Below are positions 1 through 58,398 of a stretch of 58,398 bases of DNA, one piece after another. Below the pieces are notes generated by a model. That model worked only from the letters and a program-made list of their open reading frames with translations, did not search any database and was not told the DNA's origin. Each line of letters opens with the position of its first letter. Position 1 is the stretch's first letter. The position numbers were made by a program, and so were the translations under genes. This stretch comes from a virus (taxonomy: Duplodnaviria > Caudoviricetes): positions 1-58,398 of IMG/VR virus record IMGVR_UViG_3300022928_000003; one strand, 5' to 3'.

Positions 1-796
1 CTGTTACGTCAATGCCTGTGTTGGTGGTGGCTAGTTTTTCAACCCCACTATAATAAAGTTGTGCTTCACCACCATCTTGACCAAGAAACATTTTTTGACC
101 ACTTGTATTTGTGATACGAACATTTGCTGTTCCTTGTAAATATAGGTCACCATCACCATTGTCTTTTACATAGCTATTACTACCATCGTGATAAATTTGC
201 AAGTCAGACCCTGCACCAAATATGGCTTTCTCATTGTCTGCAAAAGTTAGACTTCCTGATAAGTTTACATCTTGAGAAGCATCAACTGTAAAAGCCGTTG
301 ATCCACCAGTAGCAACTGTGATAACGTCTGAACCAGAAAATGTAATCGATGTGTTTGTATCTGCATCACCAGATATTGAATCTAATTGAATGCTTCCAAC
401 ATTAGTTAAGTTGGCATCACTCATATCTAATGAGCCAGTAACATCTAAGTTACCAGAAACACTTAAATTACCTGCCATTGTGACGTTACCATCAAACACG
501 CCACCATCTGCCTTGCTTACTGTATCAGCTACAGAGAATACATCGTAAACAATAATCTCAACAATATCATTAACGGACAACCCTGGATCAAAAACAATAG
601 ATGTACCACTAGTGGCAGTGTAATCTGCATCACCTAGCTTTACACCATTAACATACACATCAACGTAGTTGCTATCTCTGTAGCTTAAAGAAACGCCCTC
701 GGCCCCCGCTCCACTGAACGTTGTCTGTGAAGCAGTAGCAGTATAGGTATGTTTTTGTCTAACTCCGTTGGAAGGAGATACTCCTATGTATGCCAT
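1..796 (-). CDS. Tail fibre/spike protein 3, N-terminal part (continues across the circular junction into 58373..56587; ~860 aa in total)
   Basis: ATG at 796 (MAYIGVSPSNG...) overlaps the TAA of the upstream gene. The frame is open to base 1 and is in frame with the 56587..58335 ORF through the 25-nt terminal overlap. The junction peptide KLATTNTGIDVTGTAVTDGLTVAGNVSVDGG matches paralog 3702..6434. Confidence 0.85.
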   Translation of the reverse strand, partial: MAYIGVSPSNGVRQKHTYTATASQTTFSGAGAEGVSLSYRDSNYVDVYVNGVKLGDADYTATSGTSIVFDPGLSVNDIVEIIVYDVFSVADTVSKADGGVFDGNVTMAGNLSVSGNLDVTGSLDMSDANLTNVGSIQLDSISGDADTNTSITFSGSDVITVATGGSTAFTVDASQDVNLSGSLTFADNEKAIFGAGSDLQIYHDGSNSYVKDNGDGDLYLQGTANVRITNTSGQKMFLGQDGGEAQLYYSGVEKLATTNTGIDVT

Positions 797-11417: not shown

Positions 11418-11924
11418 TTATTGATCAGCAAAAGCAGGTGCTGTCGCAGATACTACGTTACCCCAAATATACCAATTTGTTGAATCCTTAGCCATGATAT
11501 TAATTTCCATAATACCAAAATCAGTAAGTGTTAATTTTGAGTTTGAATTACCATCTGCATACACTGATACGTTATCTGCATTAGTGTCTAAGTGCTGCAC
11601 ACCACCAATAAAGAAGTTGGTGTCTGAACCAGAATCAATTATTAAATTTTCTGTTTCTTCAGCTGCGCCACCATATATAAGTTTAAAGGTGGCTCCTGCT
11701 GTTGGGGATGGAAGTGTGATTGTTCTATTAGCTGCTACAGCTGGTACAACCATTGTTCTTCCACTGTGTGTTGCATTATCGAGTGTTTTGTCCTCGTCTG
11801 CTAATGCTACTGGTGCATCACCCATAGTCATAACTTCTGTAATAGTTCCAGTTGTTGTGTTTTTACTAATAGTTTTGATTGTGCTTTCAGATCTAATAGG
11901 ACCTGAGAATGTTGTATTAGCCAT
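11418..11924 (-). CDS. Capsid decoration/head fibre-like protein
   Basis: MANTTFSGPIRS start; directly downstream of the major capsid gene. Confidence 0.55.
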   Translation of the reverse strand: MANTTFSGPIRSESTIKTISKNTTTGTITEVMTMGDAPVALADEDKTLDNATHSGRTMVVPAVAANRTITLPSPTAGATFKLIYGGAAEETENLIIDSGSDTNFFIGGVQHLDTNADNVSVYADGNSNSKLTLTDFGIMEINIMAKDSTNWYIWGNVVSATAPAFADQ

Positions 11925-11987
11925 GTTAATCTCCTTGTCGTGGCTATTGTCGAACTTAATTGTTCGTCAAGGTGATTTTAGTATACA

Positions 11988-12019: not shown

Positions 12020-12039
12020 AATAATCGAACAATTGTTCG

Positions 12040-15757: not shown

Positions 15758-16153
15758 TCATTTTGTTAAACCTTTTTGTTTTTCATATGTTCTCAAACCA
15801 CCTAAACCGAGCATACCCATCAAAACTGTCATCAATGACCCCATGTCAAATGTAGGTAATTCTGGTATAGTAACTCCAATATATGCACATAAGAATATAG
15901 TTATAGGTGCTAATACAAAATGCCAACACAATGCTACACCACAAGTCCAACCTATGAATGGTCTCCAACCTGCAACAAAGATAGACTTGTGCTGTGCCTC
16001 TGCCTTGTTGATCTCAATCTGACCCTTAGCTAGTTCTTGTGCATGATTCTCAGCCATAGTTGCCACCTCATGTGCCAACTTATTCTTCATGTCTTTGTCT
16101 TCTATGAACTTACCGAGTAAATTACTTACTGGCCCTATCAATGCTGTTAACAT
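15758..16153 (-). CDS. Holin (GTA holin 3TM-like)
   Basis: EAQHKSIFVAGWRPFIGW, hydrophobic helices, GMLGLGGLRTYEK; start taken as MLTALIGP. Confidence 0.8.
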   Translation of the reverse strand: MLTALIGPVSNLLGKFIEDKDMKNKLAHEVATMAENHAQELAKGQIEINKAEAQHKSIFVAGWRPFIGWTCGVALCWHFVLAPITIFLCAYIGVTIPELPTFDMGSLMTVLMGMLGLGGLRTYEKQKGLTK

Positions 16154-16758: not shown

Positions 16759-17486
16759 TTAGCTATACTCCTAAGACTTTCCATTACTTTATCTATAGAT
16801 GGCTCTTGACCATTAGGATTAAAAACACATTGATAGTTGCGTGGGCATCCTACATGAATATCAGTGAACTCTAACTCATATGTCTTTTGAGCGCCAACAT
16901 AAATGCAAGCCATTTTATCTTTAAATACTTTTTGTTTTTTCAAGCGACATGTTGTCATTTTGGGAGGGTTTATAATGCCTTGTCGGACTTTTTGGTCATA
17001 TGTGTAATCTTTAGCGAATACCTTTACCCCAACAACTACAAAGGCAATTACTAAACCAATAATGATAAACCCATATGCTACCCATTTAATAACCTCTAAT
17101 ATTTCTTCTTGTTCTTTTTTAGCTTTTAATCTGGCTTGTCTTTGAGCTTCTTTAGCTTTTGCTATTCTGTCAGCTCTTTCAGCAATAATCTGATCCCATG
17201 CTTGAGGCCCAAACCTTAAATTAATAAGTTGTTTAAGTTCTTGTCGTTTTTCTTCTAAAAGTTTTCTATCTATGTAATCTGTAGCACTAGATTCAACTGA
17301 ACCAAATTGCTCCATGATAGACATGCCTTTTCCTTGACCTTTATTCATCTGCTCTTCGCCTAGAAAAAAGCCATCTATTTGTTTAGCTATACCTTGTATG
17401 TCTTGAACTGTGGATATATTTTCTTTTATGAAATCAACGCTTTTTTTTACTAAAGCAATTCCCGTTAATATCTCTGCGACAACCAT
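16755..17486 (-). CDS. Membrane-anchored coiled-coil protein with Cys-containing C-domain
   Basis: Coiled coil, TM helix, C-terminal C...CIY...CP..YQC. Confidence 0.55.
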   Translation of the reverse strand: MVVAEILTGIALVKKSVDFIKENISTVQDIQGIAKQIDGFFLGEEQMNKGQGKGMSIMEQFGSVESSATDYIDRKLLEEKRQELKQLINLRFGPQAWDQIIAERADRIAKAKEAQRQARLKAKKEQEEILEVIKWVAYGFIIIGLVIAFVVVGVKVFAKDYTYDQKVRQGIINPPKMTTCRLKKQKVFKDKMACIYVGAQKTYELEFTDIHVGCPRNYQCVFNPNGQEPSIDKVMESLRSIAK

Positions 17487-20982: not shown

Positions 20983-21269
20983 TATCTAATCCCTTTAAAC
21001 ATTCCGCCTCTGCCTTTGGCAACACCGCCCATGTTCATCTTCTTAACTTTACCACCGTCCATCATACCAACGGGCATGGACTTGGTTGTGTTTACTACGC
21101 CACCATCTGCTTTTTTTGCTATTTTGCCTAAAACAATTTCTTTTATTCCTGCGGGAAGGTTTTTCATTGGATTAGCTCCTCGATTTGCTTTAACCAAAGT
21201 ACCTTCAGATTTTAAAATATTTTCTGCAAGTTTTTGCATTTTTGAACTCATTTTATTTTTACCAGCCAT
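20982..21269 (-). CDS. Small basic GG-motif protein
   Basis: ADGGVV, MMDGGKV, MNMGGVA. Confidence 0.55.
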   Translation of the reverse strand: MAGKNKMSSKMQKLAENILKSEGTLVKANRGANPMKNLPAGIKEIVLGKIAKKADGGVVNTTKSMPVGMMDGGKVKKMNMGGVAKGRGGMFKGIR

Positions 21270-22753
21270 TAGTAATACTCCATTTTTCTTCTATATCCTG
21301 GTTCAAACTCTTCATCGTCAGGTGTGGATATAAAACCACCTTGTCTGAATCTTAGTATAGCCTGTGTCATTGAATCTGCCAAGTCATCATGATCTCCATG
21401 TGGAAAACTCGCACATTCCTCAACAACTTCCTCTGCAAAATTAGCATCTGGTCTCCATACCATACCACTTTCAAACACAGGTGCGCAAGCATTCATCCTT
21501 GCAAACTTATCAGCACCTTTGCTCGGTGTAAAGGGTGTAACAGGAATACCCATACGTCTTAATTCTTGTGTTAAAGGTGTACCACTTGCTTTTTGCTCTA
21601 TCAATATCATGTCTGGATCATAAGCATCGCTTAATTCATAAGCCTTTTGCTTCAGTTCTGGGAAATCCCATCTGCCCTTCTCTGCATCAAGTAAAATAAT
21701 TGCATCACCCTCACCTTCTACTGGTGTAAATATCCCCCAAGTAGTAATAGCACTAAAGTCAGCACGATCATTTTTACTGAAAGCGGTATCGTATGATTGT
21801 ATGATATATGAGCAGGGAGGTGGTTCAGCATGATCCCAAACATTCCACCATTCCCTTTTTATTATAGCTCCTTCTTCTGCCGTTGGGTTTTGCATATACT
21901 GTGCATTCCACTTGGCTACTGGAATTGACGCTTTTACTCCGTCTAATTCCTCTCGACTCCAATATTCGGGCCATAGTACATTGTTTGTATCTGGAAATAT
22001 TGCAGGAAACTCCACGACTTCCCATCTATCTGCTCCTCCTTCAGCTTGCTTAGATATAACCCTAGCTGTTAAATCTTTAATACCCCATCTAGTCATAACA
22101 ATAATAATTGAACCACCTGGCTGCAATCTTTGTCGAGGACCTGACGTATACCACTCATAAATACCATCAAGTGCAGTAGGGCTTAGTGCATCTTGTTCTG
22201 ATACTGGATCATCAATGATACATAAATCTGCACCACGACCAGCTAACGCACCACCCACACCAACAGCGTAATATTCACCACCACCATTTGTTGACCATCT
22301 ACCAGATGCCTTCGCATCACTTGCTAATTTTATATCAGGAAATATATCCCTGAAGTCATCGCTATCAATTAAGTTCTTGACTTTACGTCCAAAACCTACT
22401 GCAAGTTCTGCCGTGTGTGTCGCTTGTATTATCTTCAGATCAGGTCGTCTGCCCATAAGCCACGCTGGAAACAAGTAACTAGCAAACTCTGATTTAGTAT
22501 GTCTTGGCGGCATATTGACAATCAAACGCTTAATTTTGCCGTCAGCTACTTTTTGCAACTTGTCCGCATATATTTTGTGATGTTTACCCTCAATGAAAGT
22601 GGGCCAAATCTTCTTTACAAACTTTAAATAATTTTCTTGACTTGTTTTCTGCTCTTCTAAAACTTTAAGACGATCAAGAAGAGGAGCCATCTTAGAGATT
22701 TCATCATCACTAAGATATTCTGCAAAATCTGAGGCTTGTAAAACCTGATCCAT
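21269..22753 (-). CDS. terL: Terminase large subunit
   Basis: RLIVNMPPRHTKS (Walker A), IIDDP (Walker B), SYDTA, IEQKASG, HDDLADS nuclease motifs. Confidence 0.92.
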   Translation of the reverse strand: MDQVLQASDFAEYLSDDEISKMAPLLDRLKVLEEQKTSQENYLKFVKKIWPTFIEGKHHKIYADKLQKVADGKIKRLIVNMPPRHTKSEFASYLFPAWLMGRRPDLKIIQATHTAELAVGFGRKVKNLIDSDDFRDIFPDIKLASDAKASGRWSTNGGGEYYAVGVGGALAGRGADLCIIDDPVSEQDALSPTALDGIYEWYTSGPRQRLQPGGSIIIVMTRWGIKDLTARVISKQAEGGADRWEVVEFPAIFPDTNNVLWPEYWSREELDGVKASIPVAKWNAQYMQNPTAEEGAIIKREWWNVWDHAEPPPCSYIIQSYDTAFSKNDRADFSAITTWGIFTPVEGEGDAIILLDAEKGRWDFPELKQKAYELSDAYDPDMILIEQKASGTPLTQELRRMGIPVTPFTPSKGADKFARMNACAPVFESGMVWRPDANFAEEVVEECASFPHGDHDDLADSMTQAILRFRQGGFISTPDDEEFEPGYRRKMEYY

Positions 22754-25329: not shown

Positions 25330-25716
25330 TTAATTTATTTTTGACAATAGAAAGCCCATTTCTTTATGGCTTTGAGCTAAAATTTTAGAAACCATGTCAG
25401 AATTTGCAGAAATATCGTCCTTCATTTTCTTCATAAGAGCCTCAATCCTGTCAACATCCCATTTCGTCAATGGCTCTTCATACTTTTTAACCTCATCATG
25501 CAATTTATCCATCTTATCCATGTTTTTACACAAATATTTCGCTGATAAAACTACAGATATCGGAACTGGTTTCGTTCCATGCTCATAATGGTTCCACATC
25601 CTATGGCTCAAACCTAATTTCTTCGCCATGTTTACCTGACTTATTCCTAATTGATTGCGATAATTCAACATTTCATTGTTTTTTACTTTCGCATAGCTGT
25701 TTTCGTTACGTTTCAT
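25330..25716 (-). CDS. XRE-family helix-turn-helix transcriptional regulator
   Basis: YRNQLGISQVNMAKKLGLSHRMWNHYEHGTKPVP. Confidence 0.8.
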   Translation of the reverse strand: MKRNENSYAKVKNNEMLNYRNQLGISQVNMAKKLGLSHRMWNHYEHGTKPVPISVVLSAKYLCKNMDKMDKLHDEVKKYEEPLTKWDVDRIEALMKKMKDDISANSDMVSKILAQSHKEMGFLLSKIN

Positions 25717-26159: not shown

Positions 26160-26221
26160 GAACAATTGTTAGATATTGTATATTAACTAACAATTGTTCG
26201 ATGTCATAATAAATTTTAGAC

Positions 26222-26268: not shown

Positions 26269-27474
26269 TTAATTTCTAAAAGGTTTTAAGTTTGATTTAT
26301 ATTGGTTGTCTAATCCAAGTAATAAATTTGTACCGCCATTGTTAGCGAATACAGCACCGCCAGAGCCACTATTTACTTGTAATGGTACTTCATAGCCGTT
26401 TAGATCATAACGTCCTTGAGAAGAGCTGTAAGCGTGATTATAGTGTTGTTGATTATGAGTGATTAAAATATCACGTCCAAACTGATTAATTAAGTTTGGT
26501 CTTATTTGCTCACTTATCATAGACCTAACACGCTGAGCGGTTTGAATACCGCTAGCATCCATGATCTCTTGGACTGTAGCACCGCCAACACGTCTCATTA
26601 ATGAGTATGCTATTGATTGTCTAGTACGACTAGAGCGCCCAATATAAGACGGTGTATCAATAACGGCTTGCACTTGGTTATGTCTATTAACAATTGAGTG
26701 TCTTTGCATGTTAGATAAAAACATCATCCAAGACCATATTTTATCAATTTCTAAAGTACCGCCATGCGATCTAAATTCTACAGTTTCATAATCATCCCAA
26801 TGATTAAGATTAATAGCTGAGAATTTACCGCCAACTGAGATAACACGTTTTAATTTGTGCCAAGTACACTCAGTATTTTTTATAGTACTTGGCGCTAATG
26901 GTTTTTTGCAAAAATAACCGTTTTTTTGTCTTGCTCTTCTCATAGGCTCAACTGCATAACCACCATCATCAATTCTTGACGGCGCAAGCAAAGAATTAAA
27001 CTGTATAATATTTTTGCTTACTCTGTATCCCATATCTTTAACAATCTCTAAAGGTATAGCATCACCAAAATAATCAGTACCATTGCGACTAGGTAAAGCT
27101 CGTCCATGAATAGCAGTATATTCAACTGATTTATCATGAAAATCATTTGGATCAATTGTTATTGGTCGTCTAGATAAATGAACATGAATGGATGCAGTCC
27201 AATTGACGGTTGCGCCATGATCGTTCAATTGTTCGAGTACTGATTTTAAATAATTATATGATTTTTGAGAATTACTTAAAATTGGTAATCTTGCCTCGCC
27301 GTCAACTCTTGAACCATCATATACATACTCTAGACCTTTTATTTTATTTGAGCCTAGTGAATTGTTATAACGGTTCATTTCAGTATAAGACCTTGTATTA
27401 AATTCAGGTTCTACACCAAAAACAAAATTTTGGTTATCGAATATGTTTTTATTTGTGTTAATTGTATCAAACAT
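26269..27474 (-). CDS. Putative amidoligase (COOH-NH2 ligase) with C-terminal winged-HTH (DUF3489-like) extension
   Basis: FGVEPEF, YDGS, HVHLS, KFSAINL, TVEFRSHGGT motifs; C-terminal SLMRRVGGATVQEIMDASG. Confidence 0.75.
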   Translation of the reverse strand: MFDTINTNKNIFDNQNFVFGVEPEFNTRSYTEMNRYNNSLGSNKIKGLEYVYDGSRVDGEARLPILSNSQKSYNYLKSVLEQLNDHGATVNWTASIHVHLSRRPITIDPNDFHDKSVEYTAIHGRALPSRNGTDYFGDAIPLEIVKDMGYRVSKNIIQFNSLLAPSRIDDGGYAVEPMRRARQKNGYFCKKPLAPSTIKNTECTWHKLKRVISVGGKFSAINLNHWDDYETVEFRSHGGTLEIDKIWSWMMFLSNMQRHSIVNRHNQVQAVIDTPSYIGRSSRTRQSIAYSLMRRVGGATVQEIMDASGIQTAQRVRSMISEQIRPNLINQFGRDILITHNQQHYNHAYSSSQGRYDLNGYEVPLQVNSGSGGAVFANNGGTNLLLGLDNQYKSNLKPFRN

Positions 27475-27541
27475 TTTGTTTATCCTTTTTTAGTTATTGT
27501 TTGGTTTTTAGGCGCATTTTGCCGCCTAAGTTTTAATTAGG

Positions 27542-27570
27542 TATATAAGGTAATGATTACAAGTATACCA
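27542..27570 (-). promoter_or_regulatory. Early promoter with operator GTAATCATTAC
   Basis: -10 TATATA two bases after the motif, as at 28961..28989; degenerate -35. Confidence 0.5.
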
Positions 27571-27717
27571 CCAAAATTAATTTGCTAAGTCATTGTTTTT
27601 ATTGAGAAACTTTTTTTGCTTTACCTCTTGACAATATTATTTAACAAGTTAATTAAATTTTCATTAGGAGGATATAGGGGGGAGGATCTAGAAAATGATT
27701 TGGGCAGGGGGCGAAAT

Positions 27718-27827
27718 CCCCGATCCCCGATCAGTGTCCTGCCCGATCCGAACAATTGTCCGATTGCCTTCCAGAAAAAACCCAGATCCTGCTGGGCTTT
27801 TTCAGGGGCTGGTTATCGAACAATTTA
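27718..27827 (-). repeat. Post-gene module: stop + AATTGTTCG half-site, terminator, palindrome, CCCGATC repeats
   Basis: Half-site 27817, hairpin CCCAG/CTGGG+T6, CGAACAATTGTCCG 27749. Confidence 0.7.
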
Positions 27828-28292
27828 CCTCCATGACCTGCCTCCACGCCTTGTTTGAATAACCCTACCTGCTTCCTTCTCGTAATCGAAGGCTTCAACA
27901 ACTGCGTCAAGAAGTTGTTCGGTATCTAGCTGGAAGTCTTCATACCCCTGCTTGATTGCGTCAAAGTATCTTTTGTTCGGAACAGCCTGACCTGCGTAGT
28001 TCATTATATAAATCATACCTTGAGTCATGCCCATGTACGACAGATCAACATATTCCTTTCTGTAAAGATTTGGGTAACCCTCAAAGATGTCTAAGTTTCT
28101 CTCATCTTGTTCAGATATTTTCCACAACCCCACAGGAACGCTATGCTTCTCTGACGGAACGATACTCGCCACGTTGTTGAATATCAGTTTGTACCCCAGT
28201 AGATTTGTCTTACCTACTGGAACTGCATCAGGCGATCTAGTCGCCATATTCTTTTTGTTAAGGTTTGCACCATAAGCTATGTATATTGCCAT
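27825..28292 (-). CDS. Gamma-glutamylcyclotransferase (AIG2-like) family protein
   Basis: YIAYGANL, V.VGLWKI...DE..LD.FEGYP..Y motifs; adjacent to the amidoligase. Confidence 0.85.
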   Translation of the reverse strand: MAIYIAYGANLNKKNMATRSPDAVPVGKTNLLGYKLIFNNVASIVPSEKHSVPVGLWKISEQDERNLDIFEGYPNLYRKEYVDLSYMGMTQGMIYIMNYAGQAVPNKRYFDAIKQGYEDFQLDTEQLLDAVVEAFDYEKEAGRVIQTRRGGRSWR

Positions 28293-28322
28293 TTGTCTCT
28301 CCTTTGGCTGATTAATATATAT

Positions 28323-28351
28323 AATATATAGTAATGATTGCATGTTGTCAA
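28323..28351 (-). promoter_or_regulatory. sigma70 early promoter with operator GCAATCATTAC
   Basis: TTGACA-17 nt-TATATT. Confidence 0.75.
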
Positions 28352-28458
28352 GTAGTAAAAGTATAAAAACCTACAGCAACATTATTATAACCAGTTGTTA
28401 TCTAATTTCATGCTTTGCTGCCAATGCGTACTGTTCCTGGCTGCGCACAGGAAGGAAA

Positions 28459-28576
28459 CCGAACAATTGTTCACCTGCAGCCAGGAGGAAGGGGGGGGGT
28501 GGACAATTGTTCGAGCTGGACGCAAAAAAAACAGGAGCCGAAGCTCCCGTTTCCCGATCCGATCCCGAACAATTTA
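28459..28576 (-). repeat. Post-gene module: stop + half-site, terminator, two palindromes around a G/C run
   Basis: Half-site 28566; hairpin ACGGGAGC-TTCG-GCTCCTGT+T run; sites at 28501 and 28460. Confidence 0.75.
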
Positions 28577-28927
28577 TGCTGCAGTAATCTTCCTTCTGTC
28601 GATCATATCCCATTTAGCAACGATTTCTTCGCCTAAGATATAAACATACATATTAACAACCTTTTCAGGGTCTGAAATGTCTGTTGTTAGTTTACCAAAG
28701 TTAAATTCTTCATAGTCTTTGATAATGCCAATAACATTAAATGCCTCTTCTCCCAGCCATTTCTTAGCTTTGTATGTGCCAATTATGTAATAGTCTGTAT
28801 TAAAAGCGTTGTGGTGTACGTCTGTCCAGTCGTCATTGTCTGGTGTGTTTTCTTTTAACCAGTCTTGAAAGTATTCTTCTACTTCCTGATATTTGAATGT
28901 GTTCTTGTCTATGTCTGTAAATTGCAT
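28574..28927 (-). CDS. Early hypothetical protein
   Basis: HH.AFNTDYYIIGTYKAKKWL, EKVVNMYVYI.GE; own promoter and AAGGAG RBS. Confidence 0.7.
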   Translation of the reverse strand: MQFTDIDKNTFKYQEVEEYFQDWLKENTPDNDDWTDVHHNAFNTDYYIIGTYKAKKWLGEEAFNVIGIIKDYEEFNFGKLTTDISDPEKVVNMYVYILGEEIVAKWDMIDRRKITAA

Positions 28928-28960
28928 TTGTTTCTCCTTTGGTTTTGTTTAATTAATATT

Positions 28961-28989
28961 AATATAGTGTAATGATTGCAACATGTCAA
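28961..28989 (-). promoter_or_regulatory. sigma70 early promoter with operator GCAATCATTAC
   Basis: TTGACA-17 nt-TATATT. Confidence 0.75.
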
Positions 28990-29144
28990 CCCTTAAATAA
29001 AACTTTTTCAATGATTACGTCATCATATCCTTTAGCTATCCATTCATCTGCGTGTTGCTTTGCTCGTGAATAGTCTTTGTAGTAATCATCTGTACCACCA
29101 ACCCAAACTATCCATCTCCAGCTCTGTTTGTATTCCTCTGTCAT
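28986..29144 (-). CDS. 52-aa early protein (MTEEYKQSWRWIVWVGG...KGYDDVIIEK)
   Basis: Read manually; AGGAGG RBS; below the ORF-track size cut-off. Confidence 0.65.
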   Translation of the reverse strand: MTEEYKQSWRWIVWVGGTDDYYKDYSRAKQHADEWIAKGYDDVIIEKVLFKG

Positions 29145-29165
29145 TTTGACCTCCTGCTGTTAACC

Positions 29166-29283
29166 CCGAACAATTGTTCACCTGTGCGTGACCTGCTGGG
29201 GGGGGGCTGCTTCTCGAACAATTGTTCGCCCTGCTGCCAGAAAAAACAGGATCAGGTTTCCCCGATCCCGTTCCGAACAATTA
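29166..29283 (-). repeat. Post-gene module homologous to 28459..28576
   Basis: Half-site 29274; hairpin CGGGATCGGG/CCTGATCCTG+T6; palindromes at 29215 and 29167 around a G9 run. Confidence 0.75.
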
Positions 29284-29646
29284 GGCTGTTACTAAATTGT
29301 TCGTTGATTTGCCAGTTTCGTGAAGTCTGTGCTGCCATTCAATAACTTCGTCATTGACCAATGTTACAGCTCTTTCGCTGTGTCCACCAACATTCCACAT
29401 CATTATCTGACTAACTCTCTTACCCTCTGCTCCTAAGTAATTAAGTCCGTTCTTATAATTATATATGGTTGCTATTGTGCCATCTTCAAACTTGATAGCC
29501 CATTGAGCATCTACTTTGTTATCAGACTCCTCAGACCATTCAAATCTTGTTGGCTCTCCGAAAACTTCTACCAGCTCCTGATAAGTTGCCCCAACATTAC
29601 CCTGAAGATGTGTTCCATAAGTTGTATTTGTTTTTTTAAATTTCAT
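29281..29646 (-). CDS. Early hypothetical protein
   Basis: TY.ELVEVFGEP...KVD..W...ATIYNYK...WNVGG; start MKFKK. Confidence 0.7.
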   Translation of the reverse strand: MKFKKTNTTYGTHLQGNVGATYQELVEVFGEPTRFEWSEESDNKVDAQWAIKFEDGTIATIYNYKNGLNYLGAEGKRVSQIMMWNVGGHSERAVTLVNDEVIEWQHRLHETGKSTNNLVTA

Positions 29647-29681
29647 TGGCTTAGTTCCTTGTGTTTGTTTAACTTGATATA

Positions 29682-29710
29682 TATATAGCAATGATTGCCA
29701 CATGTGTCAA
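29682..29710 (-). promoter_or_regulatory. sigma70 early promoter with operator GCAATCATTGC
   Basis: TTGACA-17 nt-TATATA. Confidence 0.75.
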
Positions 29711-29743
29711 CAGATAAAATAATTTTTTTTTATTTTTATTTAC

Positions 29744-29776
29744 TTGACAGGATTAGCAACAGTTACTATATATAAT
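29744..29776 (+). promoter_or_regulatory. Divergent sigma70 promoter with operator variant GCAACAGTTAC
   Basis: TTGACA-17 nt-TATATA(TAAT). Confidence 0.7.
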
Positions 29777-29778
29777 AC

Positions 29779-29854
29779 ATCAAGCATTTAAATATCCTTT
29801 GTTTAATTGTAAAAGTAAAAAGAGCAGGTTTTGGTTTTCCTGCTCTTTTTTTTT
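29779..29854 (+). ncRNA. Candidate ~75-nt small RNA
   Basis: Strong promoter, no ORF, intrinsic terminator GAGCAGG/CCTGCTC+T9; 5' part complementary to early-gene SD/AUG regions. Confidence 0.5.
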
Positions 29855-30240
29855 GCGCAGCCTCCAGGGAACCTGCCCGAACAATTGTTCATGCGCAGCA
29901 GGAACGCCTGGAGCTGCAGGTGAAGGTTTCCGAACAATTGTTCCAGCAAGCAGGTCAGGCAGCCAGGCGAAACTCCGATCCTTCCAGGCTGCAGGGCTTC
30001 TTTTTCCGAACAATTGTTCACGCAGGAGGCTGTCCAGCCAGGTAGATCCCGATAACGCTGCTGGATCCAGGGATAACCTGCTGCCGTTCCGAACAATTGT
30101 ACGATCCCCGCTGCTGGAGAAGCCCGATCCCGTTCCGATTCAGGGGGGGGTGACCTTCCTGAAGCCGAACAATTCTCCCGATTACGCCCAAATCCAGCCC
30201 CGATCACCCCGATCCCGCTGCGAGTCCGAACAATTCTTCG
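29855..30240. repeat. GC-rich array of six CGAACAATT(GTTC) sites with CCWGG/GCWGC/CCGATC-rich spacers
   Basis: Sites at 29878, 29931, 30007, 30090, 30166, 30227. Confidence 0.8.
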
Positions 30241-30274
30241 GTCTCCGTGCCTACACCCTGTCTAAGTAAATATG

Positions 30275-30802
30275 CTAGTTTTTGGGTTTTACGCTACTTT
30301 GTTCTATCAAGTCTGGGTCTTTATGGGATTTGTTCGCTATTTTCATGCGTTTCTGCGCAATGTCTTGAAATTCCTGTAGTTTTGACAATATTTCCTCCCT
30401 TGTCATGCTATCTGTTCGTTCATGTAGCACATGAGCCTTGTTTACAAGCAGTCCAGTAGCTTTTAAACGCAGTTCCTCAGCTCTGATAGCCTCACCAAAC
30501 TTCCCGCTCTCCCACGCCTCGTTACGAATCTTCAACAAATCCCGCACCGACTTATCAATTGTGACCCCGAAGCGACTACGGGCTTCCTCACGCATTTCCT
30601 GATATCTTTCCTGCACGACTGGGTTACGCAACAACCTCACAGCATCGACTCCAGGGTTTGCGTATCCCGCTGCTCTAGCAGCCGATGTCTGCGTCATATC
30701 CTTGTGCATAAAGTTATTCAGAAAATCTTGCTGTTTGTCAGTCAATCTTTTCCATCCAGCTAATCGCTGTTCCTTCGTTAAATTCTCAGCTACTTTTGGC
30801 AT
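30275..30802 (-). CDS. terS: Terminase small subunit
   Basis: LTDKQQDF...TQTSAARAAGYA....AVRLLRNPVV HTH pattern. Confidence 0.8.
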   Translation of the reverse strand: MPKVAENLTKEQRLAGWKRLTDKQQDFLNNFMHKDMTQTSAARAAGYANPGVDAVRLLRNPVVQERYQEMREEARSRFGVTIDKSVRDLLKIRNEAWESGKFGEAIRAEELRLKATGLLVNKAHVLHERTDSMTREEILSKLQEFQDIAQKRMKIANKSHKDPDLIEQSSVKPKN

Positions 30803-34001: not shown

Positions 34002-34643
34002 TTATTCTTTTTTAGTTTTCCAAAAATATTCGTCAGTATCGCCTAGCCTTGTGTTGTTACCGTTTTCAACTTGGTACTCAACTGTGCTAACTTTAAAATC
34101 GGGAATTTTAGGCTTTTCAGGAGTTAGGCTATTATCATAGATTCTCATTCTATTGTTCGGATATAAACAATATTGTCCATTATTCAACTGCAACAAATTA
34201 AATGATTTATGTTCTTCAGGTATTTCACTGGTGCTGTAGTCGATTATGTCAGGTTGGTTATGATAATTGTCGAGTGTGCATATATATGTGCCTTTTACGA
34301 TACCAAAACTTCTTGTCAGGACTTCAAAATCCATACTTCCGATGAATTGTTTATGTATAGCGGTAACATTATAATCCATACAATTCCAAAACTGTAAATT
34401 AGGTAAATCCATATCAAGTTTAGGCGTAACTGGTTTTGATACAAATGCAGATATTGGTAGCTTATCAAACATAGCTCCATATTCAGGTAAGTATGTTTCA
34501 AAGTAAAAAGCTCGACCCGCTATAGACTTAGCTGTAATCCATATGCCTTTAACAAACTCTCCATGTCCATCTTGTAAATCTCTGAGGTATTCTTTTCTAA
34601 CCCAAATTTGTTCTGCTGGTAAATTGCATATCAGCTCTGGCAT
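34002..34643 (-). CDS. Conserved marine-phage hypothetical protein
   Basis: NLP...VRKEYL.D...GHGEF, LPISAF, LYPNNR motifs. Confidence 0.65.
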   Translation of the reverse strand: MPELICNLPAEQIWVRKEYLRDLQDGHGEFVKGIWITAKSIAGRAFYFETYLPEYGAMFDKLPISAFVSKPVTPKLDMDLPNLQFWNCMDYNVTAIHKQFIGSMDFEVLTRSFGIVKGTYICTLDNYHNQPDIIDYSTSEIPEEHKSFNLLQLNNGQYCLYPNNRMRIYDNSLTPEKPKIPDFKVSTVEYQVENGNNTRLGDTDEYFWKTKKE

Positions 34644-34936
34644 TACATGCTCTCATCATCAATGCTGCTAACAGGAGAATAATATGATCTGTCAGGAACT
34701 TTTGATACTTTACCGTATAATTGTTCGGTTTTTGCCCTGGGATCATCTTCAAATTTTTCATTCATTTCTAGTTCTTCAGGTGTCATTTTACTGTTTCTTT
34801 TTTGCAAATCTTTAAAAACTTTTTTAATTTCAGCATTACCAGCTTGTCTTTCATAATTGCAATTTACGCAAAACTTAGCTTTTTCATAACGCCCTATTTT
34901 CATTTTAACACCGCAGTTAATACATTTTTGCATCAT
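34643..34936 (-). CDS. Zinc-finger-containing hypothetical protein
   Basis: CINC...CVNC, FEDDPRA. Confidence 0.5.
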   Translation of the reverse strand: MMQKCINCGVKMKIGRYEKAKFCVNCNYERQAGNAEIKKVFKDLQKRNSKMTPEELEMNEKFEDDPRAKTEQLYGKVSKVPDRSYYSPVSSIDDESM

Positions 34937-35111
34937 CTTCCCCACCTGCTTTAAAGTAACTTTCATCTGGAACGCATACCCAGCAATGCCAATTCCATCC
35001 TCCATCAATAGAATACGAAGCTCCAGACTTGCCACAAATCGAACAATTATTCGGTTTTTGTTTTGTTTGCACAACTGGTTGCCAAGTTCTTCTTCGACTT
35101 TGTTCACTCAT
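34917..35111 (-). CDS. Small Cys-motif protein
   Basis: CSICG...HCWVC. Confidence 0.5.
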   Translation of the reverse strand: MSEQSRRRTWQPVVQTKQKPNNCSICGKSGASYSIDGGWNWHCWVCVPDESYFKAGGEDDAKMY

Positions 35112-35946
35112 TATCTTTCCTCCATTTTTCGTACAAAGCATTCATTGGCACATCTCTTTTAAGATACGGGTAAACCCGAACATTTTGACATTTCAATAAA
35201 TCCTTCAGCTTTTTTTTATCTCCAAATGTTAGAAAATATTTTAACTTTCTGCTACCTTTTTCAAATAAATATCCTTTATTAATAAAACTTTGTTTTTGTT
35301 CTTGGCTTGTAACGCCCAGTTTATTGGCGTATTTGTGTATTAACTTTGGATCAACACGCTTGCCATCTGGTCTAATTAGATAATTAACTGGAGATGTAAA
35401 TCCATAAAAATGCCAGTTCGTAGCCTGATATAATGTTCCGATCTCTCCCGCTTCAGGATCAGAATAAGCAATAACAAAGTTATACCCTTTCTTAATTAAA
35501 TGTTTCTTAGCTTGACCAATCATCCAACTACCTGAATGGGGGTGAGCATGACTGGCGCAAGCTCCTCTGACTAATACAATACCTAAATGTTTGTTATGAT
35601 CTCCGAACAATTCTGACAAAGCTCCTGTTCCAGCAGTCAAACCAAAACACATAACACCAACTAAATCATCATCACAGAACATACCTAGACTAAACTTTGT
35701 GGTTCCCATAGTACCCAGCCACTCATATTTTAGTATAAAATTTTGAGCCATTTTAAATGGTATTTCGTGCATTACAGCGTTTTTTATGCTTGATCTTGGT
35801 CTATTGTCATCTAAACTTTTTCGCAACTGGTATTGAAAACAAACTTCATCAAACTTCTTACCCCTGTATCCAACTGACCTGTTAGCCATTTTGTAACCTG
35901 TACGACTTTTCCACAAGTTTACATGATTAAACAAATCAAACTGCAT
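35104..35946 (-). CDS. Mom-family DNA adenine-modification enzyme (GNAT fold)
   Basis: A..FI..YE...LVGVMCFG...LVRGAC...IAYSDP..GE.GTLYQATNW.F.G pattern. Confidence 0.75.
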   Translation of the reverse strand: MQFDLFNHVNLWKSRTGYKMANRSVGYRGKKFDEVCFQYQLRKSLDDNRPRSSIKNAVMHEIPFKMAQNFILKYEWLGTMGTTKFSLGMFCDDDLVGVMCFGLTAGTGALSELFGDHNKHLGIVLVRGACASHAHPHSGSWMIGQAKKHLIKKGYNFVIAYSDPEAGEIGTLYQATNWHFYGFTSPVNYLIRPDGKRVDPKLIHKYANKLGVTSQEQKQSFINKGYLFEKGSRKLKYFLTFGDKKKLKDLLKCQNVRVYPYLKRDVPMNALYEKWRKDNE

Positions 35947-56586: not shown

Positions 56587-58398
56587 TTATTCTCCTTCTA
56601 ATGTTGTTATTCTTGCTTCTAAGTCTTCTATCTTTGCGATAGCTTCTTTCAATGCACCTGTTAATAATGGTACTAATTTTGATTGGTCAATACCTTGTGC
56701 ATCAATGTTTCCATCTTCATCTACGGCATCCTTTACACCACTTACTGCTTCTGGAATTACAGTTTGTGCTTCATGAGCAAGGAAACCATCTACTGTTGTG
56801 TCTGCATCTGCAATAAAGTTAAATCTTTTAGGTGATAATTGCTTTACTCTATCAATAGCACCAGTCATATCAACAATGTTTTCTTTTAGTCTATAATCTG
56901 AAGAAGTAACATAACTTGTAGAAGTACCACTTGTATTTATTCTACCAACTTGATTATTGTCATTATGAAATGATATTTGAACACCATCACTAGTACCAGT
57001 TCTATGACAAAGAATTGGAAAACCACCACCTATTTGACTAGCATTAAGAGTTGCATCTCCACTTGTAGCAACTTTAATATCACCAATCATAACTCTTCCA
57101 GAAGAGTTTATAGAAACTTGAACATTACCATCACCATCTGATAATACAATATTATTGCTTGCTGTTCTTATATCTAAGCCATCTTGATTGCCGTTAAAGC
57201 GACCTAAGATGGTGTTATTTGCACCAGTTGTTACTGATGAACCACTATTTTGTCCTAAAAAGGTATTATAACTACCTGTAGTTTGTTGCCCTGCTTGTTG
57301 TCCAATAAAGGTACTTTGATTTCCTGTAGTATTATCTCTACCTGCTTCCCTACCAATCGCAGAGTTATATGAACCTGTAGTCGTATTTTTTAATGCTTCT
57401 TCTCCTATACCAGTATTAGAAGTTCCTGTAGTATTGCCAGACAATGAAGCAGAACCATAAGCACTGTTAAAAGTACCACTTGTATTTGCATCTAAGGAAA
57501 CATGACCAAAAGCACTATTACCAGTTGCTGTGTTTAGGATAAGTGCGTTATAACCAAAAGCATTATTATCAGACCCTGTAACATTTGAATATAAAGCTTG
57601 ATAACCAAAAGCTGCATTTGGACCTCCTGTTGTATTAGCCTGTAAAGCACCATACCCAACTGCTGTGTTGTTGGATGCTGTGGTGTTTTGTCTTAAAGAC
57701 CTATCACCTAATGCTGTGTTGTAATCACCTGTTGTGTTATATTGTAAAGCTCTTTCTCCTAAAGCTACATTATCACGACCTGTAGTATTAGTGGTTAAAG
57801 CACTATCACCTACAGCTACATTTGATGCACCTGTTGTGTTAGCATATAAAGCTAGATTTCCTACAGCAACCAACCCTCCAGCTGTAGTATTACTGTAAAG
57901 CGACTGATACCCCACTGCTGTGTTGCTAGATGCTGTGGTATTACTGCGTAATGACTGCGTACCAATCGCAACGTTAGTTGCACCAGTAGTAGTAAGATAA
58001 CCTGCTTCATATCCCATTGCCACATTGTTATCTGCTGTAGTACTTTGCAGTGACCTTCTGCCAACAGCAGTATTAAAGCTACCTGTTGATGCGTTTAAGG
58101 AAGATACCCCAACAGCAGTATTTTGAGAACCAGTTACATTTGTTTGTAAAGCAGTGTAACCTATTGCTGTGTTGTTTGTTCCACTAGTATTATTTGGTAA
58201 TACAGCAGAACCTATTGCAGTATTATTATCGCCACTTAAACTTCCACTAGATAAAGTGCTATTGCCCAAAGCTACGTTCTGACTACCAACTGGATAATTA
58301 CCATCTAGCTTGATTGTGCCACCATCTACTGACACGTTACCTGCTACAGTTAATCCATCTGTGACTGCTGTACCTGTTACGTCAATGCCTGTGTTGGT
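56587..58398 (-). CDS. Tail fibre/spike protein 3, C-terminal part (beta-helix plus S74 chaperone)
   Basis: NTAVG repeats; SDYRLKEN...GFLAHEAQ...LTGALKEA; frame open to the window end. Confidence 0.85.
   Translation of the reverse strand, partial: TNTGIDVTGTAVTDGLTVAGNVSVDGGTIKLDGNYPVGSQNVALGNSTLSSGSLSGDNNTAIGSAVLPNNTSGTNNTAIGYTALQTNVTGSQNTAVGVSSLNASTGSFNTAVGRRSLQSTTADNNVAMGYEAGYLTTTGATNVAIGTQSLRSNTTASSNTAVGYQSLYSNTTAGGLVAVGNLALYANTTGASNVAVGDSALTTNTTGRDNVALGERALQYNTTGDYNTALGDRSLRQNTTASNNTAVGYGALQANTTGGPNAAFGYQALYSNVTGSDNNAFGYNALILNTATGNSAFGHVSLDANTSGTFNSAYGSASLSGNTTGTSNTGIGEEALKNTTTGSYNSAIGREAGRDNTTGNQSTFIGQQAGQQTTGSYNTFLGQNSGSSVTTGANNTILGRFNGNQDGLDIRTASNNIVLSDGDGNVQVSINSSGRVMIGDIKVATSGDATLNASQIGGGFPILCHRTGTSDGVQISFHNDNNQVGRINTSGTSTSYVTSSDYRLKENIVDMTGAIDRVKQLSPKRFNFIADADTTVDGFLAHEAQTVIPEAVSGVKDAVDEDGNIDAQGIDQSKLVPLLTGALKEAIAKIEDLEARITTLEGE
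58374..58398 (+). repeat. 25-nt terminal overlap identical to 1..25 (circular assembly junction)
   Basis: CTGTTACGTCAATGCCTGTGTTGGT at both ends. Confidence 0.85.

Follow-up and report, generated by a model that had tools for sequence, protein, structure and literature searches.

The window analysed here is a 58,398-nucleotide stretch of tailed-phage DNA (IMG/VR record IMGVR_UViG_3300022928_000003), the assembly of which closes on itself with a 25-bp overlap, fitting a terminally redundant or circularly permuted genome without proving either. All genes share one strand, so GC skew is uninformative on the origin of replication, and no tRNA genes were found. Beside terS, the gene for the small terminase subunit, lies a non-coding block described in an initial annotation as GC-rich in an AT-rich genome; its GC content is 58.0%, against 37.3% genome-wide. 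The block begins 35 bp past the terS stop codon, directly 3' of the gene, and its placement downstream of terS is borne out by matches of the neighbouring gene product to Pfam Terminase_2 (38.9 bits; cut-off 26.1) and PHROG phrog_51 (E = 1.9e-14). Six copies of a 9-mer, CGAACAATT, follow one another within it at distances of 53, 76, 83, 76 and 61 bp, exactly as first reported and all on the plus strand. The features around the block are:

30275-30802, minus strand: terS, small terminase subunit of 175 aa with an N-terminal helix-turn-helix (Pfam, PHROG)
29855-30240, unstranded: GC-rich non-coding array of six same-orientation CGAACAATT copies, with variable spacers rich in SCWGS and CCGATC words
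29878-29886, plus strand: motif copy 1, extending to GAACAATTGTTC
29931-29939, plus strand: motif copy 2, extending to GAACAATTGTTC
30007-30015, plus strand: motif copy 3, extending to GAACAATTGTTC
30090-30098, plus strand: motif copy 4
30166-30174, plus strand: motif copy 5, half-site only
30227-30235, plus strand: motif copy 6
29820-29855, unstranded: bidirectional intrinsic-terminator hairpin (12-bp stem, A-run and T-run flanks), closing the terS-plus-array transcription unit
29680-29774, unstranded: divergent sigma-70-type promoter pair (TTGACA-17 nt-TATATA) within a 26% GC stretch; inverted repeat I1

The block itself holds neither a promoter nor a terminator. With the terS stop codon on one side and the terminator on the other, the array should be co-transcribed with terS. 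The terminator hairpin shows a compensatory stem change in relatives; beyond it, the minus-strand member of the promoter pair drives the first cassette gene and the plus-strand member faces the terminator and the array. Tandem Repeats Finder reported no tandem period in the array, and blastn of positions 27600-30300 against GenBank phages gave no match.

The words that fill the block were initially said to recur in smaller modules near 27.7, 28.5 and 29.2 kb, and they do, along with the same motif. The modules and the genes between them are:

29150-29300, unstranded: smaller module with four motif sites (29167, 29215/29220, 29274, 29295), a G-run and a minus-strand terminator
28420-28580, unstranded: smaller module with three motif sites (28460, 28505, 28566), two CTGCAG and a terminator hairpin
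27690-27830, unstranded: smaller module with two motif sites (27749, 27817), CCGATC repeats and a hairpin
27825-29703, minus strand: promoter-gene-terminator cassettes between the modules (a 140-aa ORF; 52-aa and 117-aa ORFs; a GGACT-family gene)

In each module a motif copy abuts a stop codon, that of gene 29281-29703, gene 28574-28927 and the GGACT gene, respectively. The smaller modules hold terminators and lie 70-145 bp from conserved TTGACA-17-TATAT promoters, and the cassette genes (27825-29703) are replaced by other genes in relatives with 91-93% identical TerS.

An exact 9-mer across the genome

With 47 genomic copies against 0.53 expected, at a density of 0.8 per kb, CGAACAATT is one of the two most over-represented 9-mers of the genome. 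Most matches (41 of 47) lie outside the six-copy array, three smaller clusters included, and about 25 scattered sites fall inside genes (26 ORF matches lie beyond the modules), where they use either strand and every reading frame. Overall, the dispersed sites concentrate in the early/replication half of the genome and at gene borders, where they abut stop codons or sit just upstream of ribosome-binding sites. Their orientation outside the arrays is unbiased, with 11 copies plus 2 palindromes one way and 16 the other way.

The motif is sharply bounded: variants with one mismatch are almost absent, 47 of the 89 CGAAC pentamers continue with AATT, and the central AATT is invariant, even though about half of the copies lack a second half-site. 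In relatives, the sites are exact while the flanking sequence diverges. The excess of the 9-mer, its exactness, its occurrence in all frames and its retention despite diverging flanks argue for selection at the DNA level for a specific reader. Among the matches listed in a full-text literature search for the 9-mer, only unrelated papers appeared.

Restriction-type words

Word counts were compared with 1000 dinucleotide-preserving shuffles of the block. The approximate counts of six CCWGG and eight GCWGC sites first given for 29855-30130 proved exact, and no shuffle reaches either (0/1000 each; shuffle means 1.0 and 1.6). CTGCAG, GGATCC and same-strand CCGATC are likewise all present. CTGCAG occurs twice in this interval (mean 0.19; 14/1000 reach 2) and CCGATC also twice, with four copies, all on the plus strand, in 29855-30240 (mean 0.36; 0/1000); both are enriched, but the single GGATCC is not significant (87/1000 shuffles). 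GATC occurs seven times in 29855-30240 (mean 2.25; 2/1000). Since the shuffles rarely or never match them, the counts of CCWGG, GCWGC, CTGCAG, GATC and CCGATC go beyond GC and dinucleotide content, and the suspicion that GC content alone produced them can be set aside.

These words have a common S-CWG-S composition with a weak excess of short palindromes. In this genome CTGCAG is confined to the modules (0 elsewhere vs 15.3 expected; four in or at module edges), and CCWGG outside the modules reaches an observed/expected ratio of 0.47. Over 108 dereplicated loci, CTGCAG stands at 0.82 per kb in modules vs 0.07 per kb elsewhere, and CCWGG at 4.6 vs 0.42 per kb. The complete avoidance of some restriction sites, set against their concentration in modules, is a separate puzzle.

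Enrichment of CCWGG, GCWGC, CTGCAG and GATC beyond composition, the module-bound distribution of CTGCAG, the depletion of CCWGG outside modules and a Mom-family gene at 35104-35946 would all suit the initial proposals, in which the array lures or senses the host's restriction-modification enzymes or is a preferred target of Mom-like modification. We consider these highly improbable, and neither version is supported. A cluster of cleavable sites is a liability for a phage rather than a decoy, and the words change between close relatives, unlike the 9-mer. CCGG, CGCG and GGCC are avoided in the modules too, and SASNY, the Mom context, is at chance in the block (28 vs 24.4 expected; 205/1000 shuffles reach 28). 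The enrichment that was initially taken as the main signal is real, but the repeated unit is the 9-mer, exact throughout the genome and the clade.

Conservation beside terS

The array directly 3' of terS is conserved in uncultured aquatic relatives with TerS identities of 51-100%. At loci with 82-100% identical TerS, all 68 carry at least one copy within 500 bp downstream of terS and 61/68 carry at least three. Among 60 loci found through the motif (TerS 51-93% identical), 44 have at least three copies after terS, and copy density is 5.45 per kb in the 600 bp after the gene vs 0.69 per kb elsewhere. Clusters of at least four copies lie within 300 bp downstream of terS in 16 of 20 cases. The phage itself was found in salt-marsh, estuary and freshwater runs, and its TerS is encoded by at least 187 IMG/VR stretches.

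Within the arrays of relatives, which hold one to seven copies at spacings of 38-159 bp, the motif copies are invariant and the spacers differ through substitutions and through indels of lengths not divisible by three. A periodogram of 165 spacings has its maximum at 10.5 bp (R = 0.29; phase near 0 degrees), and 10.5 bp is again the top period after strict dereplication (34 arrays, 78 spacings, R = 0.24, jitter-null p = 0.036). Relative to transcription, 180 array copies point one way, 33 the other way and 24 are palindromic. One well-supported population variant, in run X15, changes 35 nt to 65 nt in the array with a 209-nt flank; two array-internal deletion joints in the same run are weak, because their flanks span only 25 nt. 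Only 22 of 61 arrays have a canonical G-quadruplex motif on their sense strand. An apparent "mobile spacer" common to loci L241 and L246 was discarded, the simplest reading being one unit shifted by an extra copy. A CRISPR array was also rejected: CRISPR arrays have exact 23-47 bp repeats and spacers of uniform length, and here only 9-14 bp are conserved, at spacings of 53-83 bp in this phage and 38-159 bp in relatives, with no tandem period.

Long ORFs do span the block (29799-30269, plus strand, 156 aa; 29803-30207, minus strand, 134 aa), as a protein-coding gene would require, but GC-rich DNA is poor in stop codons, and the coding reading is unsupported and extremely unlikely. Motif copies fall in different frames within each ORF, neither ORF has a Pfam match, and the spacer indels ignore multiples of three. 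Both frames are broken in relatives, including one with 100% identical TerS, and ORF identity is 30-50% at the amino-acid level where TerS is 91-98% identical, which upholds the initial description of the block as non-coding.

A role at the RNA level is also unsupported and very unlikely, whether the array were an antisense element or a 3' UTR of the terS mRNA that is structured or binds protein. Two RNA libraries do have contigs over the block (X20: 29725-30357; X21: 29926-30132), with DNA carry-over possible. A gap in RNA-library contigs over 25.5-27.6 kb and over most of 30.85-33.5 kb carries no evidential weight. Strand-asymmetric words occur clade-wide (TCGGG, ATCGG and TTCGG on the sense strand); and both strands fold better than shuffles (z = -3.2 and -4.4). 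However, the repeated near-palindrome alone can account for the low folding energies, and individual spacers barely beat shuffles (mean z = -0.6 for each strand). The spacers and their lengths vary too much for a conserved fold, 29855-30240 has no Rfam match at the gathering score or at E up to 1, and within genes the motif occurs on both strands.

Across six larger relatives, TerS is 84-94% identical and the motif core is retained in all. Apart from TerS, just one site-specific DNA binder is recognisable, an Xre-like HTH protein (25330-25716) that scores below Pfam cut-offs; it is 33-38% identical in the same six, and no gene's presence or absence among them tracks the abundance of the 9-mer. 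Autoregulation by the Xre-like protein was considered and rejected, its promoter-spacer site at 26192 being kept in the closest relative only. Relatives poor in the 9-mer still over-represent a shorter core, TTGTTCG. Pelagiphage relatives have capsid, portal and TerL in common with this phage (49-70% identity), no detectable homologue of its TerS and 0 motif copies; they carry different short-repeat arrays in the corresponding region and, in HTVC027P, analogous heptad arrays adjoin cassette promoters about 700 bp from terS. No passage on arrays of this kind was found in the portions of the pelagiphage literature covered. Against GenBank phages, TerS has one weak match only, in a Burkholderia phage (33% identical, covering 59% of the query); with so weak a best match, no cultured relative indicates the packaging type.

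The distribution of the motif also bears on whether it addresses a host DNA-processing machine, as a Chi-like, uptake-type or LexA-type signal, with the array as a sponge or a DNA-end shield. Density, use of both strands and all frames, and exactness resemble uptake sequences and Chi sites, the array copies share one orientation, and the dyad form fits the Gram-positive LexA box, CGAAC-N4-GTTCG. We nevertheless judge a host signal to be very unlikely. The motif departs from LexA boxes in that a second half-site is missing from about half of the copies and AATT is invariant. Structurally related pelagiphages lack the motif. A phage-encoded reader is favoured by the presence of the motif in sister lineages that span 34-49% GC and were sampled in marine, estuarine, freshwater and salt-marsh settings. 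A 14-mer scan of genome contigs found at least 120 single-site matches in unrelated taxa, with no local 9-mer enrichment among the matches listed, and five whole genomes taken from these matches hold 10-83 copies of the 9-mer each, a chance-like density. In four actinobacterial genomes TGTTCGG outnumbers its reversed control 3-7 times, which codon usage could explain; in a Paenibacillus genome it is not enriched.

Regulation, replication and recombination

Three further readings take up the arrangement of the sites. In the first, a transcription regulator of phage or host origin would bind the array, or the array would be a roadblock or insulator, with the 9-mer being operator-like; the clusters would form insulating barriers between the terS unit and the strongly promoted cassettes, or titrate the regulator. 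The sites are dispersed, with a concentration in the early/replication half and at gene borders; one (26192) lies in the spacer of a promoter-like element of the Xre-like HTH operon; the modules occupy terminator-to-promoter junctions; and array orientation is biased relative to transcription (180 vs 33, with 24 palindromic). Published precedents are the repeats of Cluster O and the stoperators of Cluster A mycobacteriophages (PMC4351075, PMC9283540). Even so, the regulator reading is unlikely, albeit one to be taken seriously. The Xre-like protein is just 33-38% identical in relatives that keep the motif, the strong cassette promoters have no site, orientation is unbiased outside arrays, and no integrase or immunity module appeared among the ORFs scanned. 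Regulation also offers no reason for the array to stay at terS.

Replication is a second, less probable possibility, with the array as an iteron-like origin or copy-control locus and the scattered copies as titration sites. The repeats are direct and phased, GATC is clustered (7 in 386 bp), and the 26% GC stretch with divergent strong promoters adjoins the array (29680-29800). G-tracts favour the sense strand (12.0 G3+ vs 4.1 C3+ per 300 nt; G exceeds C in 56/61 arrays), an asymmetry that could favour R-loops, and the phage has a primase-helicase, although neither a polymerase nor a recognisable initiator was found. Spacings of 38-159 bp with turnover of the spacers do not, however, resemble those of known iterons; the array has no linked initiator candidate, and the replication genes are 6 kb away. 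Like regulation, an origin gives no reason for the array to remain beside terS.

Finally, the modules could be mainly recombination junctions, akin to the promoter/stem-loop cassettes (PeSLs) of T4-type phages, that shuffle cassettes, the large array then being a collection of junction remnants at the border of a variable region. Motif modules flank every cassette between terS and the amidoligase gene, different genes lie between the modules in relatives with 91-93% identical TerS, copy number ranges from 1 to 7, and the run X15 variant turns 35 nt into 65 nt. Precedents are PeSLs (PMC2839356) and repeat exchange in Cluster O (PMC4351075). As the main function of the modules this is improbable. 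An identity of 9 bp is very short for homologous exchange and the analysis found no site-specific recombinase; the exact copies in conserved genes, with their diverging flanks, the helical phasing, and the clade-wide GC-rich spacers with their constant word bias are all left unexplained.

A candidate loading site for the small terminase

The array is non-coding, linked to terS and helically phased; its motif is exact, genome-wide and clade-wide, and copy number and spacers turn over. Judged from its sequence, its most probable role would be to dock a DNA-binding protein, the packaging enzyme being one candidate. More specifically, we tentatively favour a phased protein-binding array that would serve as a TerS loading (pac-like) site, split by inserted cassettes. 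The packaging or ejection signal offered in the initial annotation thereby becomes the leading explanation, on comparative evidence: linkage to terS, helical phasing and co-conservation of TerS and motif.

Under the loading-site proposal, the array would be a non-coding nucleoprotein-assembly site, and its copies the sites for a sequence-specific DNA-binding protein. Each putative binding site is the exact asymmetric 9-mer CGAACAATT, some copies extending to the dyad CGAACAATTGTTCG, and the sites would tend to share one helix face within GC-rich spacers. Because the array has kept its place just 3' of terS across deep divergence, we infer that the binder is the small terminase and the array its loading (pac-like) region, where binding would start packaging. 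Promoter-gene-terminator cassettes may have inserted into, or recombined through, this non-coding region, which would explain the same motif in the modules at 27.7, 28.5 and 29.2 kb.

Mapped TerS recognition sites lie in or beside terS and are built from several short repeats. The present array is 35 bp from terS, is found beside the gene at 61/68 and 44/60 of the relatives' loci, and consists of six exact copies, putatively bound, with 10.5-bp phasing. A classical pac or cos site, by contrast, is single, and that 41 of the 47 motif matches lie outside the array counts against a pac-like site, as does a position downstream of terS, neither within nor upstream of it. Moreover, since the array is the first junction of the variable-cassette region, its place beside terS could reflect that border and not TerS function. 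Conservation of the TerS helix-turn-helix is weak evidence, this signature being family-wide, and contig ends used as a proxy were uninformative (12/80 end within 354 bp downstream of terS vs 7/80 starting within 450 bp upstream).

Likeness to known systems

Several terminase recognition regions are made of short repeats, among them the R-sites of lambda cosB, the hexamer clusters of P1 pac, and SPP1 pacL/pacR. The array resembles these in its several short repeats (putative binding sites here) and in its non-coding or terS-proximal DNA; P1 pac contains GATC, as the array does, and helical phasing and bending matter at lambda cosB. The known sites differ in being unique and within or upstream of terS, whereas the array is downstream and is accompanied by 41 other matches. 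Plasmid centromere and iteron loci such as F sopC and P1 incA lie just after the gene of their binding protein, the same order of a DNA-binding-protein gene followed by a site array, and the sopC repeat unit is a short dyad plus a spacer. Those loci are nevertheless true tandem arrays of constant period, unlike the 9-14 bp core at 38-159 bp spacing seen here. The proposed array would follow a logic comparable to that of lambda cosB or of a plasmid centromere beside its binder's gene. The REP/BIME elements of enterobacteria are likewise GC-rich mosaics of short motifs at gene 3' ends, near terminators; REP elements, however, are extragenic only, chromosomal and defined by a longer imperfect palindrome, and the array spacers show only a weak excess of hairpin potential.

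The closest described analogue is the 17-bp dyad repeat TGTTCGGNNNCCGAACA of Cluster O mycobacteriophages, which has no known function and whose copies recombine to give indels (PMC4351075). In both cases the repeats are exact, number about 30-50 per genome, lie in intergenic DNA and inside genes without consistent orientation outside arrays, and create indels by recombination between copies. The 9-mer, with 47 matches, fits the Cluster O pattern of more than 30 invariant copies in intergenic and coding DNA, and the 7-bp half-site CCGAACA/TGTTCGG is identical. The two repeats nevertheless differ in sequence, TGTTCGGNNNCCGAACA against CGAACAATT, and the Corndog genome, with 34 copies of its own, has 0 of the latter. 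The half-sites are in the opposite arrangement (GAAC..GTTC around AATT here, with about half being half-sites only), the covered text describes no dense array beside terS (PMC4351075), and host and gene content are unrelated (65% vs 37% GC), with no tblastn match below E = 0.01 between the proteins of Corndog and this phage.

Cluster A stoperators (PMC9283540) are also asymmetric short sites in at least 20 copies, many in short intergenic gaps, with a monomeric binder possible. Their orientation follows transcription genome-wide, however, and here it does so in the arrays only (180:33); Cluster A phages are also temperate with an immunity repressor, and none was found here among the ORFs scanned. 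The PeSL cassettes of T4-type phages, which mediate gene shuffling, are like the modules in that sigma-70-type promoters and terminators flank small non-essential variable genes (PMC2839356). They differ in that what is conserved here is a 9-mer set apart from the promoter and terminator, lying in GC-rich DNA and also inside core genes, and that the large array has no promoter.

An extension of the loading-site reading would accommodate the scattered copies, although we regard it as rather improbable: the 9-mer might be a lineage-specific "self" mark on phage DNA for the packaging machinery, with the array as its high-affinity loading site. Scattered copies (0.5-0.9 per kb in some sublineages) would then label the whole chromosome, and the terminase or a partner could prefer phage over host DNA, or re-engage along concatemers. 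In packaging, such a mark would parallel uptake sequences or Chi sites, and the clustered, otherwise avoided restriction sites might denote a protein-shielded or dispensable (terminally redundant) region.

Implications

Hardly any uncultured aquatic phage has a described packaging signal, origin or global regulator. A precisely delimited DNA word, together with a conserved array at the side of terS in a widespread clade, provides a testable protein-DNA pair. The identity of the half-site with that of the Cluster O repeat suggests a shared type of reader, or convergence. If the packaging or replication machinery does read the scattered copies, the phage would be marking its own DNA in a new way.

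An exact DNA word across the phage genome

The 58,398-bp assembly is a complete phage genome of 37.3% GC, closing on itself through a 25-bp end overlap (window 1-25 identical to 58374-58398) and holding every convincing gene on the minus strand; a large minus-strand ORF extends past both window ends, so the record is cut inside a gene. The genes identified include:

30275-30802, minus strand: terS (Pfam Terminase_2, score above the cut-off)
21269-22753: terL
Structural genes: SU10-type portal and Mu gpT-like capsid protein
Ejection proteins and lysozyme
Replication and nuclease genes: primase-helicase, Cas4-like exonuclease, helicase and Sak4-like protein
Mom-family protein
Amidoligase and GGACT-family gene

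TerL is 56-61% identical to those of Pelagibacter phages HTVC023P and HTVC027P and of two uncultured phages, and public runs with the phage sequence represent salt-marsh, estuary and freshwater samples. The amidoligase and GGACT-family cyclotransferase genes (window 26269-27474 and 27825-28343) each have a strong promoter of their own, and window 34002-35946 encodes the Mom-family protein and a PurM-like protein (PHROG label 'ferredoxin'); together, the four suggest DNA or metabolite modification chemistry.

The repeated unit of the GC-rich block adjoining the terS 3' end (29855-30240), CGAACAATT, is genome-wide and not local, a point missed in the initial annotation. This 9-mer occurs 47 times vs 0.53 expected (maximum of 3 in 100 shuffles) and ranks among the two most over-represented 9-mers of the genome; its one-mismatch variants are nearly absent, and of the 89 CGAAC pentamers, 47 continue into AATT. 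Of the matches, 26 fall in ORFs beyond the GC-rich modules (the block and three smaller motif-bearing stretches), spread over both strands and every reading frame, which places the signal in DNA and not in peptide. Since about 18 matches form a near-perfect dyad (the full 14-mer at 12026, 14843 and 29215) and the second half looks random in about 23, the unit is an asymmetric 9-mer able to pair head to head. In alignable relatives, many sites are kept exactly despite diverging flanks and others are lost. That this word is a signal to a host machine is very unlikely.

The sole Rfam match at the gathering score (50.9 bits vs 49) is a Mu-gpT-DE RNA (window 11922-11972, minus strand) a short way downstream of the Mu gpT-like capsid gene; a hairpin and a full 14-bp dyad (12026-12039) separate it from the capsid stop codon. 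Compared with its reversed control, the half-site TGTTCGG is enriched 3-7-fold in four actinobacterial genomes (Mycobacterium, Rhodococcus, Nocardia, Nocardioides), which may be only codon usage; a Paenibacillus genome shows no such excess.

A non-coding array beside terS

The initial counts for the block are all confirmed. Its six motif copies start at 29878, 29931, 30007, 30090, 30166 and 30227, with the spacings of 53, 76, 83, 76 and 61 bp initially described, and its reported GC richness was measured at 58%. Among the restriction-type words said to tile it, CCWGG (6), GCWGC (8-9), CTGCAG (2), CCGATC (4) and GATC (7) all exceed dinucleotide-preserving shuffles; GGATCC (one in the block) shows no excess, nor does the Mom context SASNY (28 vs 24.4), which argues against the suggested hotspot for Mom-like modification.

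The block is non-coding. Long ORFs cover it on both strands, as expected of DNA poor in stop codons, and the motif copies fall in differing frames within each spanning ORF. What stands against a coding gene, a reading of practically nil probability, is that a protein family search with these ORFs gave no match, that a relative of 100% TerS identity already has them frame-shifted, and that they retain only 30-50% identity in relatives with TerS 91-98% identical. Moreover, in an alignment of eight six-copy arrays the motif copies are invariant and the spacers carry substitutions and indels of lengths not divisible by three.

One well-supported DNA variant has 35 nt of the array swapped for 65 nt. 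Contigs of two RNA libraries cover the array, with DNA carry-over possible, and a function as an RNA element is highly improbable.

Conservation and linkage to terS

A 14-mer scan of IMG/VR yielded at least 118 loci, at least 61 of them with a TerS homologue, at least 52 with the amidoligase and at least 45 with the GGACT-family protein. Scanning with the TerS protein gave 187 relatives; among the best 80 of these, 68 have enough downstream sequence for a motif count, and the motif follows terS in 68/68, with at least three copies within 500 bp in 61/68, so the array does recur in relatives, a check the initial annotation had proposed. Loci found through the motif have TerS 51-93% identical, carry 5.45 sites/kb in the 600 bp after terS vs 0.69/kb elsewhere, and show at least three copies after terS in 44 of 60 cases; of 20 clusters with at least four copies, 16 fall in the 300 bp that follow terS.

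Across 68 dereplicated arrays, copy number is 1-7 and spacing 38-159 bp, with 180 copies oriented one way, 33 the opposite way and 24 palindromic. A periodogram of their spacings has its maximum at 10.5 bp, at near-zero phase, and this peak persists after strict dereplication (34 arrays, 78 spacings, jitter-null p = 0.036), so that sites tend to share one helix face. Spacers are alike in composition, not in sequence: they share the sense-strand words TCGGG, ATCGG and TTCGG, GCAGC and CCTGG are also common, and G-tracts outnumber C-tracts in 56 of 61 arrays. The core TTGTTCG is over-represented in all six larger relatives, of which three have the full 9-mer in abundance (26-34 copies) and the other three have few (3-5); the terS-side array is thus constant, and heavy genome-wide scattering sublineage-specific. 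What is shown for the block is a non-coding array, conserved and phased, whose exact repeated DNA word is under DNA-level selection.

Terminator, promoters and cassettes

On the coding strand, terS is followed by the array, a terminator, a 26% GC promoter stretch, three cassettes and the amidoligase gene:

29820-29855: strong hairpin terminator following the array, with a compensatory stem change in relatives
29680-29774: 26% GC stretch with divergent TTGACA-17-TATATA promoters
Three promoter-gene-terminator cassettes with the smaller modules in between
29.2, 28.5 and 27.7 kb: smaller modules with 4, 3 and 2 motif sites, respectively
27541-27570, 28322-28351, 28960-28989 and 29679-29708, minus strand, and 29744-29774, plus strand: five copies of a conserved promoter (TTGACA, 17 nt, TATAT)

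Motif copies lie right against the stop codons of both the cassette genes and the capsid gene. A regulator or insulator array is a somewhat unlikely reading of the block. Relatives with TerS 91-93% identical carry differing cassettes between the modules; that the modules are mainly recombination junctions is quite unlikely.

Successive modules are 711, 707 and 711 bp apart. The five promoter copies have in common a spacer core, GCAATCATTAC, which may be a candidate second regulatory site. In window 29744-29858, the plus-strand promoter faces a bidirectional terminator and would yield a transcript of ~75 nt, antisense to the stretch between array and first cassette; this stretch is conserved in relatives, and a 15-codon ORF on its minus strand has a good ribosome-binding site.

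Restriction-type words

Genome-wide, CCGG (0 vs 32 expected), CGCG (0 vs 25) and GGCC (16 vs 59) are avoided, as they are in the GC-rich modules, and GGATCC (2 vs 8.8) and CCWGG (30 vs 64) are markedly under-represented. The 57.5 kb outside the modules contain no CTGCAG (15 expected); its four copies lie inside modules or at their edges. CCWGG has an observed/expected ratio of 0.47 outside modules and a density of 9.5/kb inside. Across 108 dereplicated loci, CTGCAG reaches 0.82/kb in modules vs 0.07/kb elsewhere, and CCWGG 4.6/kb vs 0.42/kb. We do not adopt the earlier suggestion of a restriction-modification decoy, because clustered cleavable sites would harm the phage, individual sites differ between close relatives, and the words are part of a general S-CWG-S bias; decoy or Mom hotspot, this kind of reading is exceedingly improbable. 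Fast turnover in word-biased non-coding DNA is a possible neutral account of the contrast, and shielding by bound protein or a dispensable region are possible, more interesting ones. The avoidance signature might aid host identification.

Candidate reader of the array

The array would be a set of protein-binding sites, with TerS as the favoured candidate reader. Known TerS sites are repeat clusters at terS, which favours this candidate, as does the retention of the array at the terS 3' flank down to 51% TerS identity. Additionally, TerS is 84-94% identical where an Xre-like HTH protein, the one further site-specific binder that can be recognised, drops to 33-38%, and pelagiphages with common capsid, portal and TerL lack both a detectable homologue of this TerS and the motif; these same phages carry other short-repeat arrays in the corresponding region. 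As the motif also occurs elsewhere in the genome and the array borders the variable cassette region as well, we hold the TerS/pac reading as tentative, a possibility somewhat short of even.

Relation to known repeats

The nearest described counterpart is the Cluster O mycobacteriophage repeat TGTTCGGNNNCCGAACA (PMC4351075), with 34 invariant copies in Corndog, located between and inside genes, with recombination between copies and no known function. We confirmed the count of 34 in the Corndog genome, which has 0 copies of the 9-mer and no detectable protein in common with this phage. The two motifs have an identical 7-bp half-site, but in opposite arrangement. Stoperators (PMC9283540) share some features with the array but depart from it in at least one defining test, as do cosB/pac repeat clusters, REP/BIME elements and plasmid centromeres. 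PeSL cassettes (PMC2839356) and iteron loci likewise share some features with it and appear to match it only in part; a replication origin is an unlikely reading.

Cultured pelagiphage relatives have GC-rich short-repeat arrays of other kinds. HTVC027P (L120) carries tandem GCTTGNN heptad arrays (15949-16070, 16839-16866, 17162-17175) next to the promoters of small leftward-directed genes in the terS-terL interval, and 023Pt_psg01 (L119, 15360-15470) an array of GCTCGCT/GCTTGCT words. A term search of two pelagiphage papers found no description of such arrays, and a full-text literature search for the 9-mer gave nothing relevant among the matches listed.

The feature is real and conserved. It can be classed both with genome-wide phage repeat motifs and with repeat arrays adjoining terS, as a variant of these two known kinds. 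Array and motif together give a clear experimental handle.
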